From Candidatus Iainarchaeum sp. (lineage in GTDB: Archaea > Iainarchaeota > Iainarchaeia > Iainarchaeales > UBA10219), in NCBI GenBank assembly GCA_018304425.1, contig JAGVWE010000003.1, positions 1-64,000 on the forward strand: DNA of 64,000 nucleotides, given 5' to 3'. Below, one piece after another: positions 17,724-64,000 of the stretch. The position numbers and the translations under genes were made by a program. Below the pieces are notes generated by a model, which saw nothing but the letters and a program-made list of their open reading frames with translations, had not been told where the DNA came from and did no database searches. Every line of letters begins with the position of its first letter. Within the stretch, counting starts at the first letter, position 1.

Positions 17724-18383
17724 ATGACGAACGATTATTTTGCAGATGCAAAAAAGAGGTTAGAACAGCAAATCCCACCACACGACACCACCCAATTTAC
17801 TGAAATGCGAAATAAGATTAGGGCGGCGTTAGAAAAACAGGAAAACGAGTATCTCCTCACAGTGCGTAGTTTAAAGACGCTTGTTCTTGGTGATTGGAAT
17901 ACAGATGAAAAAAAGCAGTTACTGTATAGGCTACGGAACCTTCTGCTTAAGAATGGCCTCTATGCTGAAACTATTGCTGGATACTATGAAATGAATAAAA
18001 AAGGAGGGCTAACGCAAGAACAAATTTTTGGGACCTGCTGTGCAAGGCACCAACTCATAGTTTTTATTGACGGCACGGGCACAGGCACCGTAACGGAACA
18101 AAACTATCTCAATACATACTACATTTTTCAAGGCAAGGTCATCTTTTTCATCAAAGAGGAGAAATTCGATAAATTAAAAGATAACCCAAGCGAATATATA
18201 AAGAACTTCCCAACAATCATTACATACAAAAACGGCGATTTACCCGAAAAAATTTTAATATACAGTCGCCTAAGGATATATCGGTTGGCTGAGATAATCC
18301 AACGCCAAGCAGCCATTGGAAAAGGGCTTAAGAATCCAAAATACGAAACTTGGGAAAAAAGAGTGAAAAACTTAAAACAATAG
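17724..18383 (+). CDS. AT-rich hypothetical protein, possible nucleoside deoxyribosyltransferase (NDT)-like fold
   Basis: Abrupt drop in GC after purA. LVLGD...LIVFIDGTGTGTVTE...KVIFF resembles the NDT D-x-GT-xx-E pattern. Confidence 0.55.
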   Translation: MTNDYFADAKKRLEQQIPPHDTTQFTEMRNKIRAALEKQENEYLLTVRSLKTLVLGDWNTDEKKQLLYRLRNLLLKNGLYAETIAGYYEMNKKGGLTQEQIFGTCCARHQLIVFIDGTGTGTVTEQNYLNTYYIFQGKVIFFIKEEKFDKLKDNPSEYIKNFPTIITYKNGDLPEKILIYSRLRIYRLAEIIQRQAAIGKGLKNPKYETWEKRVKNLKQ

Positions 18384-18417
18384 ATTAATATATGAAAAGA
18401 AGCACTAATGTGATACG

Positions 18418-18687
18418 ATGAGCACAGAACTAGAGAAAATGTATGAACAGACTGAAAGCCTAAAAAATGTGCTACTGGAAAATAACAACATAGACATCTT
18501 ACTTTATTTGTCAAAATATAATCCCGATGCAACTCGCGATGCGATTGCAAGAAGATTTGGAAAAGAAGCATTAGAAGGCCTGGAAGATTTGAAGCAGTTG
18601 CACTTAATTCGTGAGAAAGAGCAACAACTAACGCTAACAAATGAGGGCATATTCCAGGTAGAGGGATTACTCACATTAGCCCTCTAA
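18418..18687 (+). CDS. Small winged-helix protein
   Basis: IDILLYLSK...TRDAIA...LEDLKQLHLI...LTLTNEG wHTH pattern; AT-rich. Confidence 0.6.
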   Translation: MSTELEKMYEQTESLKNVLLENNNIDILLYLSKYNPDATRDAIARRFGKEALEGLEDLKQLHLIREKEQQLTLTNEGIFQVEGLLTLAL

Positions 18688-18723
18688 TATTTTAATATCT
18701 GCGCTCCAAAAGTAGTTCGATAA

Positions 18724-19077
18724 CTAACCAAAGAGGGATCCAAAAAATGAGTTGTCCTTCTTCTGTTTTTTCTTTTTCCTGGGCTTAGAAGAAGTAACAG
18801 AGCGTTTTCCCTCTTTCCCAAGCTTCTTCATGAAAGTTGCCCAGCTGTCAGTCCCCTGCAACTTATTGCATCGAGCACAAACGCACGCACTATTCCGCAA
18901 AGTAGCACTACCACCTTTTGAAGCGGCATTTTTGTGCCCGGAATGCATCTCAGATAAATCTAATTTCTTCCCGCATGCCTCGCACTTTTTCCCCGCACGC
19001 AAATAGAGAATCTGTTTATCGCGGGCCCCTAGCGTTCTTTTCTTTGGTTTGTCATCCCCGCCGAAGAACCAACCCAT
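18724..19077 (-). CDS. HNH endonuclease
   Basis: CEACG...H...SKGG....N....CARCN Zn-binding HNH pattern. Confidence 0.85.
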   Translation of the reverse strand: MGWFFGGDDKPKKRTLGARDKQILYLRAGKKCEACGKKLDLSEMHSGHKNAASKGGSATLRNSACVCARCNKLQGTDSWATFMKKLGKEGKRSVTSSKPRKKKKQKKDNSFFGSLFG

Positions 19078-19137
19078 ACAATCGATTAATTACATAAGAT
19101 AAGTGTTTAAAAAGAAATGAGCTTTGTTTGAGCCCTG

Positions 19138-19500
19138 TTAAGCCGTCGCCACGGCGGGGCTCTCGTAGTCGAAGGCCGCCAGCGTGAGCTTGTCCTGGAT
19201 TGCCTGCTTGTTCGGCAATTCGATGAAGAAGGCGAGCACGGTCAAGCCTTTCTTGGTTTTGCTTGTCAGGTAAGCGGATTTTATCTTGGCGAGTTCCGGC
19301 TTGGAGATGGTCTTTCCAGTATAGTCTTTCAGGAATTGAGTCGCCCCCATTATTTCGAGACCAGTAACGCCGACTTTCGGGCGGAAGTCGATGTGAAGGT
19401 TTTCGCCGTATTCCACGCCCCCAGTGGACTTGAATTTGGTGTTGTAAATAAACAGGATGTCGAACTCCTCGTCGTAATCCACTGCAAACGTTTTAGACAT
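19138..19500 (-). CDS. DUF2283 family putative antitoxin
   Basis: DYDEEFDILFI...IDF...VTGLEIMGAT. Confidence 0.8.
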   Translation of the reverse strand: MSKTFAVDYDEEFDILFIYNTKFKSTGGVEYGENLHIDFRPKVGVTGLEIMGATQFLKDYTGKTISKPELAKIKSAYLTSKTKKGLTVLAFFIELPNKQAIQDKLTLAAFDYESPAVATA

Positions 19501-19744
19501 GCTTGCTTACCATGCGCTGCCATGCTATTCTAATCTTCTCAACGGCTATCAATTTTAGTGTTTTCTCATATTCATTCTTTTCCAAAACATATTTATGGCA
19601 TACGTTTCGGCTGACCTCATAATAAAGACAAAACTTGTCCCTGCCTTGTTGCACGACCAATGGTTCAAGGGATGCGCTGGTCAAATGCCCTATAACCTCT
19701 TCCGAAGTCATTTGCCTCGCATCCAGCTTAAGCCTGGCATGCAA
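19493..19744 (-). CDS. DUF4258/BrnT-RelE-like putative toxin
   Basis: HARLKLDARQMTSEEV at the N-terminus; overlaps the DUF2283 gene. TTG start with TATA about 26 nt upstream. Confidence 0.55.
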   Translation of the reverse strand: MHARLKLDARQMTSEEVIGHLTSASLEPLVVQQGRDKFCLYYEVSRNVCHKYVLEKNEYEKTLKLIAVEKIRIAWQRMVSKHV

Positions 19745-19887
19745 GGATACTCTTAGGGTGTATAACCACTATAAATGGTTTTGCCCAGCCGAAAGACGGG
19801 CAAGGAAAAATCTTGGGGTGCAGGCGCCATGGTCAAGTAAGTTGGCTCTGCTTATATTATATTTATAATCCATCCCAACCACCTAAC

Positions 19888-20184
19888 ATGACCAAACAAG
19901 CCGCCGCCCTGCTTCGGCCCCTCCAATCCCTTCCCGGCGTCGGCCCGTCCATCGCGCAGGACTTGTGGGAGCTCGGGGTGCGCAGGCCCGAGCAGCTCAG
20001 GGGCAGGGACGCGGAAGCCCTCTACGAGGAGTTCTGCGCGCTGAAGAAGGCGAAGGTCGACCGCTGCCTGCTATACACCTTCCGGTGCGCCATCCATTCC
20101 GTGGAACGCGGGAAACACTCGCAGGCCTGCCTCCAGTGGTGGAACTGGTCGGACGAGAAGCAGGGAAAGCGGAGGCCGCACTGA
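19888..20184 (+). CDS. Helix-hairpin-helix protein (Cdd1/TfoX-C-like)
   Basis: LQSLPGVGPSIAQDL...DRCLLYTFRCA...WWNWSD. Confidence 0.8.
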   Translation: MTKQAAALLRPLQSLPGVGPSIAQDLWELGVRRPEQLRGRDAEALYEEFCALKKAKVDRCLLYTFRCAIHSVERGKHSQACLQWWNWSDEKQGKRRPH

Positions 20185-58499: not shown

Positions 58500-58563
58500 G
58501 AACCATGAGAAGGCACAAACCTATTTAAACCCTTGACCACCCAAGTCTATTGTGTGGGATGGC

Positions 58564-59514
58564 ATGGCCGAACCGCTCCTGTTTTTCACCGGAAATTCGA
58601 ACCCCGAACTGGCCAAGGAAATCGCTTCCCACTTGAAGGCGCGGCTCGGCGACGCAACTGTCACCAAGTTCCAGAACGGGGAAACCTATGCCCGGTTCAA
58701 CCAGAGCGTGCGCGGCAAGGACATCTTCATCCTGCAGAGCCTCTGCGAGCCCGTGAACGATAACCTCATGGAGCTCCTGGTGCTGGCGGATGCGGCCAAG
58801 CGCAGCAGCGCCGAAACCATTAACGCGGTCATCCCCTGGTACGGCTACAGCCTCCAAGACCGGCAGACCCAGCCCAGGGAACCGATTACCGCGAAACTCG
58901 TGGCCAACCTCCTGCAGACCGCCGGAATCAACCGGATACTCACCATGGACCTACACGTCGGCCAAATCCAGGGCTTCTTCGACATCCCCGTGGACCACGT
59001 CACGGCAATTCCCTTGTTCGCCGACTACTTGAAGAAGCAAAAACTGCACAACCCCGTGGTGGTGAGCCCGGACGCGGGAGGCACGAAACGCGCGCGCATC
59101 CTGGCCAAGGAATTGAATGCCCCCATCGCCATGATTGACAAGCGAAGGCCCAAGCCCGGCGAAGCCGAAATCATGAACGTGGTGGGAGAGGTAAACGGGA
59201 AGACCTGCATCGTCGTGGACGACATCGTCAACAGCGGTTCCACGCTGGCCCCGGTATCGAAGGCGCTGCTGGCACGAGGGGCCACCGGCATCTACATCTG
59301 CGCCACGCATCCCATCCTCTGCGGACCCGCGGTCCAGCGGCTGAAAGAAACCCAGGCCAAGGAAATTGTTTTGACGAACACCATTCCCGTTTCCAAGGAA
59401 AAGCGCCTGCCAAACGTGCGCATCCTTTCCGTGGGCAAACTGCTGGCGGACGCCATCCAGATGATGCACGCCCACAAGTCGTTGAGCGACAAGTTCGAGC
59501 AGCCCCTCCAGTAA
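58564..59514 (+). CDS. prs: Ribose-phosphate pyrophosphokinase
   Basis: F.NGE, VNDNLMEL, MDLH..QIQGFFDIPVD, VSPDAGG and DDIVNSGST motifs. Confidence 0.95.
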   Translation: MAEPLLFFTGNSNPELAKEIASHLKARLGDATVTKFQNGETYARFNQSVRGKDIFILQSLCEPVNDNLMELLVLADAAKRSSAETINAVIPWYGYSLQDRQTQPREPITAKLVANLLQTAGINRILTMDLHVGQIQGFFDIPVDHVTAIPLFADYLKKQKLHNPVVVSPDAGGTKRARILAKELNAPIAMIDKRRPKPGEAEIMNVVGEVNGKTCIVVDDIVNSGSTLAPVSKALLARGATGIYICATHPILCGPAVQRLKETQAKEIVLTNTIPVSKEKRLPNVRILSVGKLLADAIQMMHAHKSLSDKFEQPLQ

Positions 59515-60741: not shown

Positions 60742-61161
60742 TTACCAGCGGCGTTTTCGGGGCTTCTTGGCCTTGCCCGGCCGCTTCCGGGCGGGCTTTT
60801 TGCGGGCGACCCCTCGGCGCCCCGCCTTCCGGGGGCGGGAAACCGGGCCCGGCTTCAAGCCCAGCGCGCGGGCGGACAACAGGCGAGCCAACTCCACGCT
60901 TTGCTCGTGCAGCGAGGGCGGAATCAATCCAATGGCTTTGAAGACCCCGGCCTTCACCCGGTAATGGCGTTCGAGGAGGCTGCCGAGTTCTTCGATGGAG
61001 GCACTGGACGCCTCGCCTTCGACGGCCAAGACAAACGAGTGAATGGCGTGACCCAACTCGGTTAAACCCTTTTTCCGCGCCTCGGCACCCCGCGCGGCCT
61101 TGACCGCTTCGGCCTGGGCCAAGGCCTTCCGGTCAACGGCTTCCGCAAGCAAACCCAACAA
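60742..61161 (-). CDS. Hypothetical protein with Lys/Arg-rich C-terminal tail
   Basis: GGAGG precedes TTG; helical body then RKKPARKRPGKAKKPRKRRW. Confidence 0.55.
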   Translation of the reverse strand: MLGLLAEAVDRKALAQAEAVKAARGAEARKKGLTELGHAIHSFVLAVEGEASSASIEELGSLLERHYRVKAGVFKAIGLIPPSLHEQSVELARLLSARALGLKPGPVSRPRKAGRRGVARKKPARKRPGKAKKPRKRRW

Positions 61162-61241
61162 AACCCTCCAACCATTGAAGGCAATAAACGTATTTAAATA
61201 GATTCGCGTCCAAATTAACTCATTCAATCGGAGGTCATTCC

Positions 61242-61406
61242 ATGGGAAAAGAGCTTTCAAAGGAACTGCTGGAAGTCCTGGCCTGCCCGGCCTGCAAGGG
61301 AGACCTGGACTACCAGAAAGCAAAAGACCAACTGGTCTGCAAGAACAAGGCCTGCAAGCGCGCCTACAAAGTCGAAGACGGCATCCCGATCATGCTCGTG
61401 GAGTGA
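61242..61406 (+). CDS. Trm112/YcaR-family methyltransferase activator (not in ORF track)
   Basis: LLEVLACPACKGDL...LVC...C...YKVEDGIPIML; GGAGG upstream. Confidence 0.9.
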   Translation: MGKELSKELLEVLACPACKGDLDYQKAKDQLVCKNKACKRAYKVEDGIPIMLVE

Positions 61407-62094
61407 CCTTCCTTGGACGTCGGGTGCGCTGGGAAGCCAAGGACCTGATTAAAGGAGCGGATTTCCGACCCGGGCTGTGCTTTTTTCTCGGTGCTTCAGG
61501 CGACAACACAAACCCTTCGGCCAATAAACTTTTCCGCAGCCGCTTACGGGCGCGCCACAAGCGCTGGTCAACTGCGTTTCTTTTCAGTCCGAGTACGGCT
61601 GCAATCTCTTCTGGTGTCTTATCGCCTTGAATGGACAACCGCAATACTGCCGCCTCCCTAGGGGGCAGCAAGCCAATCGCATTTTCAATTAAGGCAACGG
61701 CTTCACGGCTTTCCAGTGTATAATGGCGCGTTCTCCGCGCACGATAACGCTCTTCCGCATCTGCGGGAAGTTGGCGGAGCGGATGGCTACGTTGGGTACG
61801 CCATTCCAGTAAAAAAGTGTTCTTCACGCCGCGTGTCAAATATCCAATCAAGCCATCCTCCGTTTTGGCTACCAGTTTCCCTGTAACCCAATTCCATGCG
61901 ACCTCGGCTGCCCGCGCACGCATCAGTTCACGCAAATGACGTGTGGAGAGATTGCGATATTCAGGCAGCAGGTGTCTGTAAAGGATCCGCCCCATGGCAC
62001 TATCCCAACCCGGCCGCGTCCTGTCGAGCATGGCCAGTAAATCTTCTATCGCACGGTTGTCACTAGCCGTATACCCGTGAACTGGACCTGACAT
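61390..62094 (-). CDS. ECF sigma-70-like protein (regions 2 and 4)
   Basis: Region 2-like GYLTRGVKNTFLLEWR; region 4 LPPREAAVLRL...TPEEIAAVLGLKRNAVDQRLWRARKRLR; basic tail. Confidence 0.7.
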   Translation of the reverse strand: MSGPVHGYTASDNRAIEDLLAMLDRTRPGWDSAMGRILYRHLLPEYRNLSTRHLRELMRARAAEVAWNWVTGKLVAKTEDGLIGYLTRGVKNTFLLEWRTQRSHPLRQLPADAEERYRARRTRHYTLESREAVALIENAIGLLPPREAAVLRLSIQGDKTPEEIAAVLGLKRNAVDQRLWRARKRLRKSLLAEGFVLSPEAPRKKHSPGRKSAPLIRSLASQRTRRPRKVTPRA

Positions 62095-62147
62095 ACACCA
62101 GATACACACACGACCCCAAATAAAAAGGTTACCTTCCTTCCTCTGTC

Positions 62148-62627
62148 ATGGACCTCTTGTTCCACCTGCTCATCCCCTACACGCTTTTGCGGCTCCGGGG
62201 TTATGGCAACCGCTACCTGGTCCCGTTGGCGGTGCTGGCCGTCCTCCCCGACCTCGACCGGTTCGCGTGGCTGCGGCGAAGCTGGCACAGCCTCCTCCTG
62301 GGCCTTGCGCTGGTTGCCCTGGCCTGGTTCTTGGCGCGCAAGCGGGCGGACGGCAAACGCATCACTTTCATCAGCGGGTTCTACTTCTTCTCGCACCTCG
62401 CCCTCGACTTGGGCGGGGAAATGGCGTGGCTGTGGCCCCTGGACTCCAGCTACTACGTGGTCACGCCCTACGTGAAGCTCGTCAACCTCTGGCCGATTTT
62501 CGGCGTCGACTTCCAGGTGGTGCCAACCGTGGTCCAAGGCATTGGAACCGTGCTGAGCGCGGCTGGGTTTGGGGTGCTCGGGTTGCTACTGGGGTTGTGG
62601 ACTGTGAACAGCCTGCGACGAAAATAG
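62148..62627 (+). CDS. Membrane-bound metal-dependent hydrolase (YdjM-like)
   Basis: H, LPDLD, R..HS, SHLALD and WLWP motifs. Confidence 0.82.
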   Translation: MDLLFHLLIPYTLLRLRGYGNRYLVPLAVLAVLPDLDRFAWLRRSWHSLLLGLALVALAWFLARKRADGKRITFISGFYFFSHLALDLGGEMAWLWPLDSSYYVVTPYVKLVNLWPIFGVDFQVVPTVVQGIGTVLSAAGFGVLGLLLGLWTVNSLRRK

Positions 62628-62628
62628 T

Positions 62629-63003
62629 TTAGGCGCCTGGAATGAATTCGGCGAACGGCTTGCCGGAAAAGTGCTGGTCGCCGGTGAGCAGTTTCTTCTC
62701 GGCGCTGGCATAGGAATAAATGATGGCGTCCGCCAAGTGCAGGCCCTCAGCCTCGCACAAGTTGCCGGCCTCTATGGCCCGCTCGGCAGTAAGGGGCAGC
62801 ACGAGACTGTTCTGCATGACGTAATCAATGGCTTGATTCCGTTCAGCATCCGAAAATTTCCGTTTGACAAGGATTCTGGTGAGTTCACTTAGGACCAGGG
62901 TTGGCGTTTCGAGGTAGTTCCCTTCCAGCATGGACTTGAAGGGGGAGGCAGCATCCCCAAAATAGGATACCCAAGCATAGGTGTCAACGATATAGGTCTT
63001 CAT
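62629..63003 (-). CDS. vapC: VapC PIN-domain toxin
   Basis: IVDTYAW, LSE, LADAII and LLTGDQHF motifs. Confidence 0.9.
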   Translation of the reverse strand: MKTYIVDTYAWVSYFGDAASPFKSMLEGNYLETPTLVLSELTRILVKRKFSDAERNQAIDYVMQNSLVLPLTAERAIEAGNLCEAEGLHLADAIIYSYASAEKKLLTGDQHFSGKPFAEFIPGA

Positions 63004-63193
63004 GAATTTCTTCCTCGACGATGTCCTTGGTCGAAATGCGCCCGGCTAAGAAACCGGCCAAGCTCTTTTTCTTCTTGAACAGGCCCTCAACCAGGATTTC
63101 GTTGGCTAATTTGGATAGGTTGTCGGGAGAACGTTGGCGGAGCTTGGCGAAGACCGCTTCATCCAACACCAAGGTGGTGCGCACTTTGGACAT
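62984..63193 (-). CDS. vapB: VapB-like RHH antitoxin
   Basis: RTTLVLDE...NLSKLANEIL; overlaps vapC. Confidence 0.75.
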   Translation of the reverse strand: MSKVRTTLVLDEAVFAKLRQRSPDNLSKLANEILVEGLFKKKKSLAGFLAGRISTKDIVEEEIHEDLYR

Positions 63194-63199
63194 AGTACC

Positions 63200-63237
63200 A
63201 GCATATAGCATACAGCATACCTTTTATTTAAGCTTAA
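63200..63237 (-). promoter_or_regulatory. vapBC promoter with three AGCATA direct repeats and TTAAGCTTAA palindrome
   Basis: AGCATA at 63200, 63207 and 63214 (7-nt period), between the TATA region and the start codon. Confidence 0.45.
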
Positions 63238-63290
63238 TTGCTATAAGCTAGGCACCAAAAGCAATATAAAATAATTCGTTGATTGACGAA

Positions 63291-64000
63291 TTATTGTAGA
63301 CACGCCTTCACGAACCCCAAAAACAGGGGGTTGGGCTTCAGGGGCCGGGACGTGAACTCGGGGTGGAACTGCGTGCCCACGAAGAACTTGTGCACGGGCA
63401 ACTCCATGATTTGCATGATGCGCTTCTGGGGCGCGCGGCCGGAGAACACCAGGCCCTTGGCGGTCAACTGGTCGATGTACTGGGTGTTGACGTTGAAGCG
63501 GTGGCGGAAGCGTTCCCGGATTTTCGCGGCGCCATACAGCTTGTAGGCCAGCGTGCCTTTTTCCACGAGGACGTCGTAGCCGCCCAGCCGCATGGTGCCT
63601 CCAAGGCCTTCAATATCTTCCTGCTCGGGGAGGATGCAGATGACGGGATGCGGGGTCCTCGGGTTCACCTCCGTGGTGTTTGCGTCCTTCAAGCCACAGG
63701 CATTGCGCGCGAACTCAATCGTTGCCAACTGCATGCCATAGCAGAGGCCGAGATAGGGGATGCCGTGGGTGCGCGCGTAGCCGATGCAGGAAATCTTTCC
63801 CTCCACGCCGCGCGAGCCGAAGCCGCCGGGGACGATGAGGCCGTCAACGCCGGCCATGGCTTCTTCAACGGAACGCTTGCCCTTCTCGAGGTCGGTTGTT
63901 TCAATCCACTTCACGTTGACCTTGGACTGGGTCACGGCCGCGCAGTGTTCGAGCGCTTTCAGGATGCTGATATAAGAGTCGAAGAGACCGGTGTACTTTC
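63291..64000 (-). CDS. pyrG: CTP synthase, C-terminal glutaminase part (5' end outside the window)
   Basis: VPGGFGSRG, GLCYGMQ, GGTMRLG, ERFRHRF and QFHPEF motifs. Confidence 0.96.
   Translation of the reverse strand, partial: KYTGLFDSYISILKALEHCAAVTQSKVNVKWIETTDLEKGKRSVEEAMAGVDGLIVPGGFGSRGVEGKISCIGYARTHGIPYLGLCYGMQLATIEFARNACGLKDANTTEVNPRTPHPVICILPEQEDIEGLGGTMRLGGYDVLVEKGTLAYKLYGAAKIRERFRHRFNVNTQYIDQLTAKGLVFSGRAPQKRIMQIMELPVHKFFVGTQFHPEFTSRPLKPNPLFLGFVKACLQ

Follow-up and report, generated by a model that had tools for sequence, protein, structure and literature searches.

Here we report a gene for a divergent homologue of bacterial sigma-70 factors of the extracytoplasmic function (ECF) type in the genome of a small DPANN archaeon from groundwater, Candidatus Iainarchaeum sp. 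(assembly GCA_018304425.1). The gene lies on the minus strand at positions 61390-62094 of the window, by which we mean the whole stretch of 64,000 nucleotides (nt) that was analysed (contig JAGVWE010000003.1, positions 1 to 64,000). Its product is a member of the sigma-70/ECF family, intact but highly divergent; its genome is that of an archaeon, on a contig that is authentic. The gene sits in a precisely located insertion, uses codons foreign to the genome and starts at the distance from an AT-rich box that is usual in this archaeon. From these observations we infer that the protein is expressed, binds DNA and has a regulatory role with target genes of its own. The account that we favour, with about even confidence, is that a divergent ECF sigma gene was acquired horizontally and recently and that its product now most likely acts as a DNA-binding regulator through the helix-turn-helix (HTH) of its sigma-4 domain. 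Transcription in archaea is not known to require a sigma factor. The gene and the parts of its product are placed as follows:

61390..62094, minus strand: sigma-like gene (sigma-70/ECF-like), 234 amino acids plus stop codon (open reading frame translation, Pfam, NCBIfam)
61780..62067, minus strand: N-terminal four-helix domain, residues ~10-105, sigma-2-like but degenerate (profile matches, model, motifs)
61519..61725, minus strand: sigma-4 domain with its HTH, residues ~124-192 (Pfam, model confidence of 95-98, structure superposition)
61393..61518, minus strand: disordered basic C-terminal tail, residues 193-234 (model, charge count)

The gene had been picked out beforehand in a sequence-only reading, made from the letters and their open reading frames (ORFs), as a sigma factor with a clear region 4, a region 2-like segment and a basic tail. 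The 234-codon frame quoted there runs from 62094 to 61390 with no internal stop, its translation contains the region 4 string, the GLIGYLTRGVKNTFLLEWR segment and the RTRRPRK tail, and no overlapping ORF of more than 75 amino acids (aa) is found on the plus strand opposite. Region 4 is strong: the Pfam family Sigma70_r4_2 (PF08281) matches residues 136-186 at 6.8e-12 and 45.3 bits (cut-off 25.7), and Sigma70_r4 (PF04545) matches at 3.5e-9 and 36.5 bits (cut-off 24.1). The NCBIfam sigma70-ECF model TIGR02937 is also passed, at 51.5 bits against a curated cut-off of 42.9 (51.8 bits in the genome search), with the match confined to residues 79-190, equivalent to profile positions 49-165 of 165. 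Region 2 was borne out in part: the segment is real but partial, Pfam Sigma70_r2 (PF04542) giving no match even at E<=10. The same Sigma70_r2 profile matches 59 of the 65 aligned proteins, the sigma-like protein being among the six without it. The ECF equivalog model NF004113 aligns with residues 25-192 at 30.6 bits, far under its own cut-off, and in PHROGs the protein resembles phrog_1740, 'RNA polymerase sigma factor' (2.3e-11). There is no Pfam match to Sigma70_r1 or Sigma70_r3, leaving a two-domain architecture. The nearest sequences of solved structure are Mycobacterium tuberculosis SigE chains (E ~0.003), in which GYLTRGVKNTFLLEWR is aligned with the region 2.3-2.4 motif GWLHRITTNLFLDMVR.

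An AlphaFold2 model of the full-length protein, built on an alignment of 64 remote homologues, has a mean predicted local distance difference test score (pLDDT) of 76.8 and consists of four N-terminal helices (residues 10-103, pLDDT 70-84), a linker, the sigma-4 domain (124-192, pLDDT 95-98) and a disordered tail. When this model was searched with Foldseek the top entries of the Protein Data Bank (PDB) were ECF sigmas aligned across both domains, led by SigL (6dv9_F, 2e-4, 207 columns) and followed by SigE, AlgU, SigH and RpoE, and VIA-align placed 161 of the 174 residues of SigL and 149 of the 164 residues of E. coli sigma-E on it. Isolated sigma-4 structures superpose at a root-mean-square deviation (rmsd) of 1.0-2.0 A, as with 3hug_A (Z 11.3, rmsd 2.0 over 80/80 residues) and 3vfz_A (rmsd 1.0 over 62 residues). 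Since the sigma-4 domain alone could account for the full-length scores, residues 1-122 were modelled apart (pLDDT 76.2). In a search of 48,161 chains made independently of Foldseek, sigma-2 domains took ranks 1-4 for this N-terminal domain, with Z scores of 7.5-6.8 (SigE at 7.5, with rmsd 3.0 over 76 residues, the EcfG-type RpoE at 7.0, ShbA at 7.0 and SigH at 6.8), and about ten further sigma-2 domains fell inside the top 50. A likeness of the N-terminal domain to TFIIB or Brf2 was disregarded, the Foldseek rows concerned being weak (E 2-4, probability <=0.13).

The two domains have been kept very unequally. Against the alignment, the majority residue is retained in 26 of 31 well-conserved columns of sigma-4, while the N-terminal domain retains it in no more than 9 of 22. 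Region 2.3-2.4 still has its (W/Y)L..N..R motif (Y85, L86, N92, R99), but the D-L-x-Q-E motif has been replaced, residues 56-60 reading E-L-M-R-A; among the 64 homologues its D, Q and E columns are held at 80%, 62% and 47%. In bacterial sigmas DLxQE is the part of region 2.2 that touches the beta-prime clamp helices and so binds the core enzyme, and the sigma-4 HTH binds the -35 element. This contrast between the domains suggests that what has been retained is the ability to bind DNA and not the polymerase. The tail noticed in the sequence-only reading is indeed basic, with 12 lysine or arginine residues against 2 aspartate or glutamate among the 42 residues from 193 to 234, and the net charge of +10 within the last 40 residues is reached by just one of the 64 homologues.

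The surroundings of the gene were delimited by comparison with relatives:

61407..63290, no strand: accessory insertion of 1,884 bp between the convergent core genes trm112 and pyrG (comparison with relatives)
61242-61406, plus strand: trm112, core flank
63291 onward, minus strand: pyrG, core flank
62118..62126, no strand: single AT-rich box, AAATAAAAA / TTTTTATTT, candidate shared bidirectional archaeal TATA (spacing to both ATGs)
62148..62627, plus strand: gene for a YdjM-like multi-pass membrane protein, divergent neighbour (Pfam 2.9e-6, just below the gathering score)
62629..63211, minus strand: PIN-domain toxin gene (62629-63003) and overlapping upstream 75-aa ORF (62984-63211) with no family match (family scan)
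61403..61414, no strand: one copy of a 12-nt direct repeat, GTGACCTTCCTT, the other being GTTACCTTCCTT at 62128-62139 (11/12 identical)

In the relatives G092 and G090 pyrG and trm112 converge with ~30 nt between their 3' ends, and in a third relative, G089, the junction is filled by a different 228-aa ORF (locus L107, 793-1479, plus strand), so that insertions seem to recur at this spot in the order. The sigma-like gene and trm112 overlap at their 3' ends on opposite strands, by the last 14 coding nucleotides of the former plus its stop codon. As had been noted from the sequence, codon usage is atypical: the GC content at third codon positions (GC3), with a median of 0.81 in the genome, is 0.53 in this gene; of 852 filtered ORFs with 200 aa or more, 19 (the lowest 2.2%) have a value as low, and by synonymous-codon likelihood the gene falls in the lowest 0.5%. 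An exhaustive phmmer search of 1.84 billion representative proteins returned 166 matches at E<=1e-3, the best non-self match at 8e-7, and at E<=1e-10 the self match alone, hence no orthologue. A word-based protein search likewise matched the protein only to itself, and a single-protein comparison matched it in none of 40 relatives. Its protein cluster has three members, 100% identical and differing in the choice of start, and all database copies are identical. Among the remote homologues the cluster look-up gave a single name, 'RNA polymerase sigma-70 factor (ECF subfamily)', for P0019. As queries in a donor search, the remote homologues P0005 and P0011 gave, respectively, one weak match in Acidimicrobiia and no match.

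The gene appears to have a promoter of archaeal type. The sequence-only reading had proposed an archaeal TATA box a short way upstream, and a run of nine A or T (W9, TTTTTATTT) is indeed found at 62126-62118, which is -32 to -24 from the sigma-like ATG at 62094 on the minus strand; the same box lies -30 to -22 from the YdjM-like ATG at 62148 on the plus strand, the two ATGs being divergent and 54 nt apart. Genome-wide, AT-rich hexamers are in excess at starts of -30 to -26 from ATG start codons in all 7 contigs, a peak that is the signature of archaeal TATA boxes before leaderless genes. As both box distances agree with this peak, ATG 62094 is favoured as a leaderless start over the alternatives M22 (213 aa) and M34 (201 aa) of database gene calls. 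We regard it as a candidate TATA element serving both directions, a putative promoter of native style judged by its spacing.

That the genome is archaeal, as the sequence-only reading had assumed, is evident from its markers. The assembly (1.477 Mb in 7 contigs, with completeness of 92.55% and contamination of 1.3%) carries archaeal small-subunit (1327 bits) and large-subunit rRNA, one gene for TBP, one for TFB, and a single RNA polymerase large subunit in the archaeal split form of A' (873 aa) and A'' (444 aa), adjoining the B subunit; the C-terminal domain of bacterial RNA polymerase alpha has no match in this 92.55% complete genome. These markers lie on other contigs, and the contig of the window (C5) was therefore examined directly: its AT-rich hexamer value per gene is 0.52, beside 0.55 for both C4 and C1. 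Contamination, mis-binning or a chimeric contig, which the sequence-only reading had listed among the outcomes that would undo it, could be read into the foreign codon usage and into a nearby bacterial-type phosphoribosyl pyrophosphate (PRPP) synthase with 46-55% identity to bacterial genomes. Both flanks, however, are core genes syntenic with archaeal relatives, trm112 with 63-70% and pyrG with 60-64% protein identity to genomes of the same archaeal order, and the promoter signature of C5 is that of C4, the contig with the rRNA, TBP and TFB genes. The junctions are also reproduced in assemblies of other runs. Logan contigs of runs X1 and X2, both possible source runs, contain 60900-63500 whole and with no differences, and low-depth Logan pieces of run X6, which belongs to the study of X1 and is not marked as a possible source, bridge both gene ends with 0-1 differences (record 16, 61026-61427, across the trm112/sigma junction; record 19, 62052-62271, across the sigma/YdjM junction). 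Run X12, from another study, holds parts of the YdjM-like and PIN genes, and the exact 234-aa protein is recorded on 12 contigs from four sources. With syntenic flanks, a shared promoter signature, junctions reproduced in other runs and an estimated contamination of 1.3%, an artefact of this kind is already largely refuted and is the least probable of the explanations that we considered.

Sigma-like genes are common in the order to which this archaeon belongs. In the genome survey that the sequence-only reading had called for, here made over the same order, the TIGR02937 cut-off is exceeded in 39 of 196 genomes with its own genome counted, including the one-contig genomes G029 and G016; the class therefore appears to be retained. 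Of the 15 best loci, 11 match Pfam families of both regions, 2 and 4; in 3 it is region 4 alone that matches, in 1 region 2 alone. The protein of the window is only faintly similar to these 15 (best 15.9 bits in a 15-sequence phmmer comparison), which suggests that its gene was acquired separately from the other sigma-like genes of the order. Nine of the 15 proteins (L007, L008, L009, L010, L014, L015, L017, L020 and others) have an N-terminal extension rich in Lys, Arg and Pro, scored as a net charge of at least +6 in the first 25 residues from the most upstream start, a count to be read with the starts uncertain and the genomes kin to one another. By the same charge criterion the extension occurs in none of the 64 remote homologues of the alignment; the protein of the window has a C-terminal arm instead. 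Two proteins of its own genome that match TIGR02937 below threshold were set aside as not being sigmas. One, on C1, combines an unmatched N-terminal part with a C-terminal sigma-4-like HTH (L003 1471-2394, minus strand, equivalent to C1 ~81840-82763; 307 aa, 22.8 bits), and it contains three repeats of the type GKP.S.E.R.RI.AA, which we take to resemble the DNA-binding motifs of NUMOD3-type nucleases. The other, on C4, is by eye a double-HTH regulator of the Lrp type.

On the account that we favour, a bacterial gene of the ECF type (group 4, with sigma-2 and sigma-4) would have arrived horizontally and recently on a small accessory insertion, and its transcript would probably now be a leaderless mRNA, made from a TATA promoter in the native style of the archaeon. 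Because the cell has only archaeal RNA polymerase, TBP and TFB, the protein cannot serve as a bacterial initiation factor. Its well-kept sigma-4 HTH and basic tail would most likely bind DNA in the manner of an ordinary sequence-specific regulator, with the degenerate sigma-2 domain as a scaffold or a surface for a partner, and the promoter common to the sigma-like and YdjM-like genes would be the first candidate target. Such repurposing of a sigma factor as a transcription factor, one of two possibilities raised in the sequence-only reading, is plausible on anatomical grounds, fitting a near-consensus sigma-4 (26/31) beside a region 2 at 9/22 with ELMRA in place of its core-binding motif. Most archaeal regulators of bacterial type are conventional DNA-binding regulators.

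Several points weigh against this account. Foldseek found nothing at E<=0.001 for the N-terminal domain alone, which weakens the case for a sigma-2 fold; Z scores of 7.5 or less are in a range common for helical bundles, and the models are biased by the alignments of genuine sigmas on which they rest, so that a sigma-2 fold for this domain is supported but not proven. The role of DLxQE in core binding enters the argument as a premise. Prokaryotic regulators typically work as dimers, a point on which the present observations are silent. No palindrome or operator-like inverted repeat was seen near the promoter, no RNA run was found to contain the sigma-like stretch, and the gene has no orthologue by which purifying selection could be gauged.

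The main rival holds that the gene is a passenger, which arrived recently by horizontal transfer, has no function, is intact only through youth and is bound to decay. We think this unlikely but take it more seriously than any other alternative, since a singleton of foreign codon usage with no orthologue and with degenerate sigma-2 motifs, at a junction that holds another gene in a relative (L107) and beside a probable toxin-antitoxin pair of the kind that flexible islands typically carry, is what it leads one to expect. It fits less well with a 234-codon frame that is intact, a sigma-4 domain close to consensus, a start spaced, as is standard in the genome, from a putative TATA box shared with a gene of native codon usage, and the persistence of sigma-like genes across the order, one-contig genomes included. 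A different function is envisaged if the protein uses its sigma-2-like domain to dock on archaeal RpoA', at the clamp coiled-coil, and modulates initiation alongside TBP and TFB. That coiled-coil is the homologue of the bacterial beta-prime clamp helices, a docking site conserved across the domains of life. Both the retention of the two-domain ECF architecture and the recurrence of the class in DPANN archaea, within the order and beyond it (PMC8204110), would suit such a factor. Loss of the conserved DLxQE residues, a Pfam region 2 that goes undetected and the lack of any link between the protein and RNA polymerase make it improbable, and a complex prediction of residues 1-195 with the RpoA' clamp region (1-420) favours neither side (score 0.00, mark 0.32, the controls not being folded).

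The second possibility of the sequence-only reading, that the protein is an exported effector which hijacks the RNA polymerase of a bacterial partner, draws on its family resemblance to bacterial sigmas and on nothing else, and we consider it very unlikely. By eye the N-terminus, MSGPVHGYTASDNRAIEDLL, has no hydrophobic signal-like segment, none of the 12 neighbouring ORFs scanned is a secretion gene, the motifs of region 2, the supposed core-binding motif among them, are degenerate, and the known hosts of DPANN archaea are themselves archaea according to Castelle et al. (PMC8204110). A wider reading is that DPANN archaea have repeatedly domesticated bacterial ECF sigmas into a lineage-typical class of regulators with an added poly-basic arm, possibly with sigma-2 touching the RpoA' clamp or TFB, and that the gene of the window is a very young example, seen soon after its insertion and already wired to a bidirectional TATA box that it shares with a membrane-protein gene. 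We offer this as a speculation with a low chance of being right.

Of the other genes in the insertion, the YdjM-like gene follows the codon usage of the genome (GC3 0.87), which, next to the foreign usage of the sigma-like gene, makes the island a mosaic. Homologues of the YdjM-like protein occur in 10 of the 195 other genomes of the order; they are never on contigs with listed sigma matches, and the protein was for that reason rejected as a conserved partner or anti-sigma factor. The PIN gene and the 75-aa ORF likely form a VapBC-type toxin-antitoxin pair. The absence of an anti-sigma neighbour, reported from the sequence at the outset, stands: a scan of 12 neighbouring ORFs matched no anti-sigma family, nor did it find a giant surface-protein gene. 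An anti-sigma gene beside an ECF sigma is common but not universal. The two copies of the 12-nt repeat, spaced 725 nt apart, flank the sigma-like gene together with the TATA box, and two of the 3 genome occurrences of the motif AAGGAAGGTNAC (0.5 expected) are these copies. The repeat may be a target-site duplication or, equally, due to chance, as ten such short repeat families occur within the same 3 kb; if it is a target-site duplication, the last few codons of the sigma-like gene would be target sequence, and ~20 nt would once have separated trm112 from the YdjM-like gene.

Downstream of the sigma-like gene, beyond trm112, a putative gene on the same strand (60742-61323, minus strand, 193 aa) would encode a protein with a hydrophobic stretch and a tail rich in basic residues, RPRKAGRRGVARKKPARKRPGKAKKPRKRRW; were TTG 61323 its start codon, this putative gene would overlap at its 5' end with the beginning of trm112 on the opposite strand. 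It was rejected as an anti-sigma candidate, having no family match and being separated from the sigma-like gene by trm112, and co-transcription of the two is unlikely given this conserved gene on the opposite strand between them. Elsewhere in the window, the PRPP synthase gene (58552-59514, plus strand) is of bacterial type, its best 80 matches among genome contigs being all bacterial, from Selenomonadales, Bacillus and others, at 46-55% identity; this is a further indication that genes have passed from bacteria into this archaeon. A PCC-domain neighbour used as a query against metagenome contigs found no relative. At 18000-20000 the window has a patch of low GC (0.44 against ~0.60) with an HNH endonuclease ORF (18724-19077) and small ORFs that have no family match, probably another mobile or foreign insertion judging from its composition.

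Bacterial-type sigma-70 genes in DPANN archaea have been described before, and they are common in this order, so that finding one in an archaeal genome is less surprising than the sequence-only reading took it to be. Castelle et al. (2021, Front Microbiol; PMC8204110) report sigma-70 genes (fam00359) in many DPANN genomes, exclude mis-binning, find no anti-sigma factors and call the controlling mechanism unclear, and a review (PMC6126073) credits the first description of archaeal sigma factors to Rinke et al. (2013). To this the present case adds a cleanly bounded and apparently recent acquisition, with an exact insertion site, foreign codons and a promoter of native style; a contrast at the level of residues, in which sigma-4 is close to consensus and the sigma-2-like domain is degenerate, its DLxQE altered; a count of such genes above the cut-off across a whole order; and a first target to examine, namely the promoter that the YdjM-like gene shares. 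Should contact between sigma-2 and the archaeal initiation machinery prove real, it would constitute a third kind of initiation-level control in archaea. As the organism is uncultured, progress will require heterologous biochemistry.

Set beside these known systems, the gene shares with the DPANN sigma-70 genes, as PMC8204110 describes them, an archaeal contig, a small DPANN genome with TBP and TFB, and no anti-sigma gene nearby. It departs from other DPANN sigma-like genes in being a singleton whose basic extension is C-terminal, and from 12 of the 15 best sigma-like genes of its order in encoding a protein with no detectable Pfam region 2. With bacterial ECF (group 4) sigmas such as SigL, SigE, SigH and RpoE (PDB 6dv9, 9m9e, 5zx2 and 1or7) the protein has in common the succession of a putative sigma-2, linker and sigma-4 over ~190 residues, the lack of regions 1.1 and 3, a TIGR02937 score above the cut-off and a sigma-4 that superposes at rmsd 1-2 A. 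Unlike them, it belongs to a host that has no bacterial core polymerase, has DLxQE replaced and no match to Sigma70_r2, carries an extra basic tail of 42 residues, and is encoded behind a putative archaeal promoter with no anti-sigma partner.

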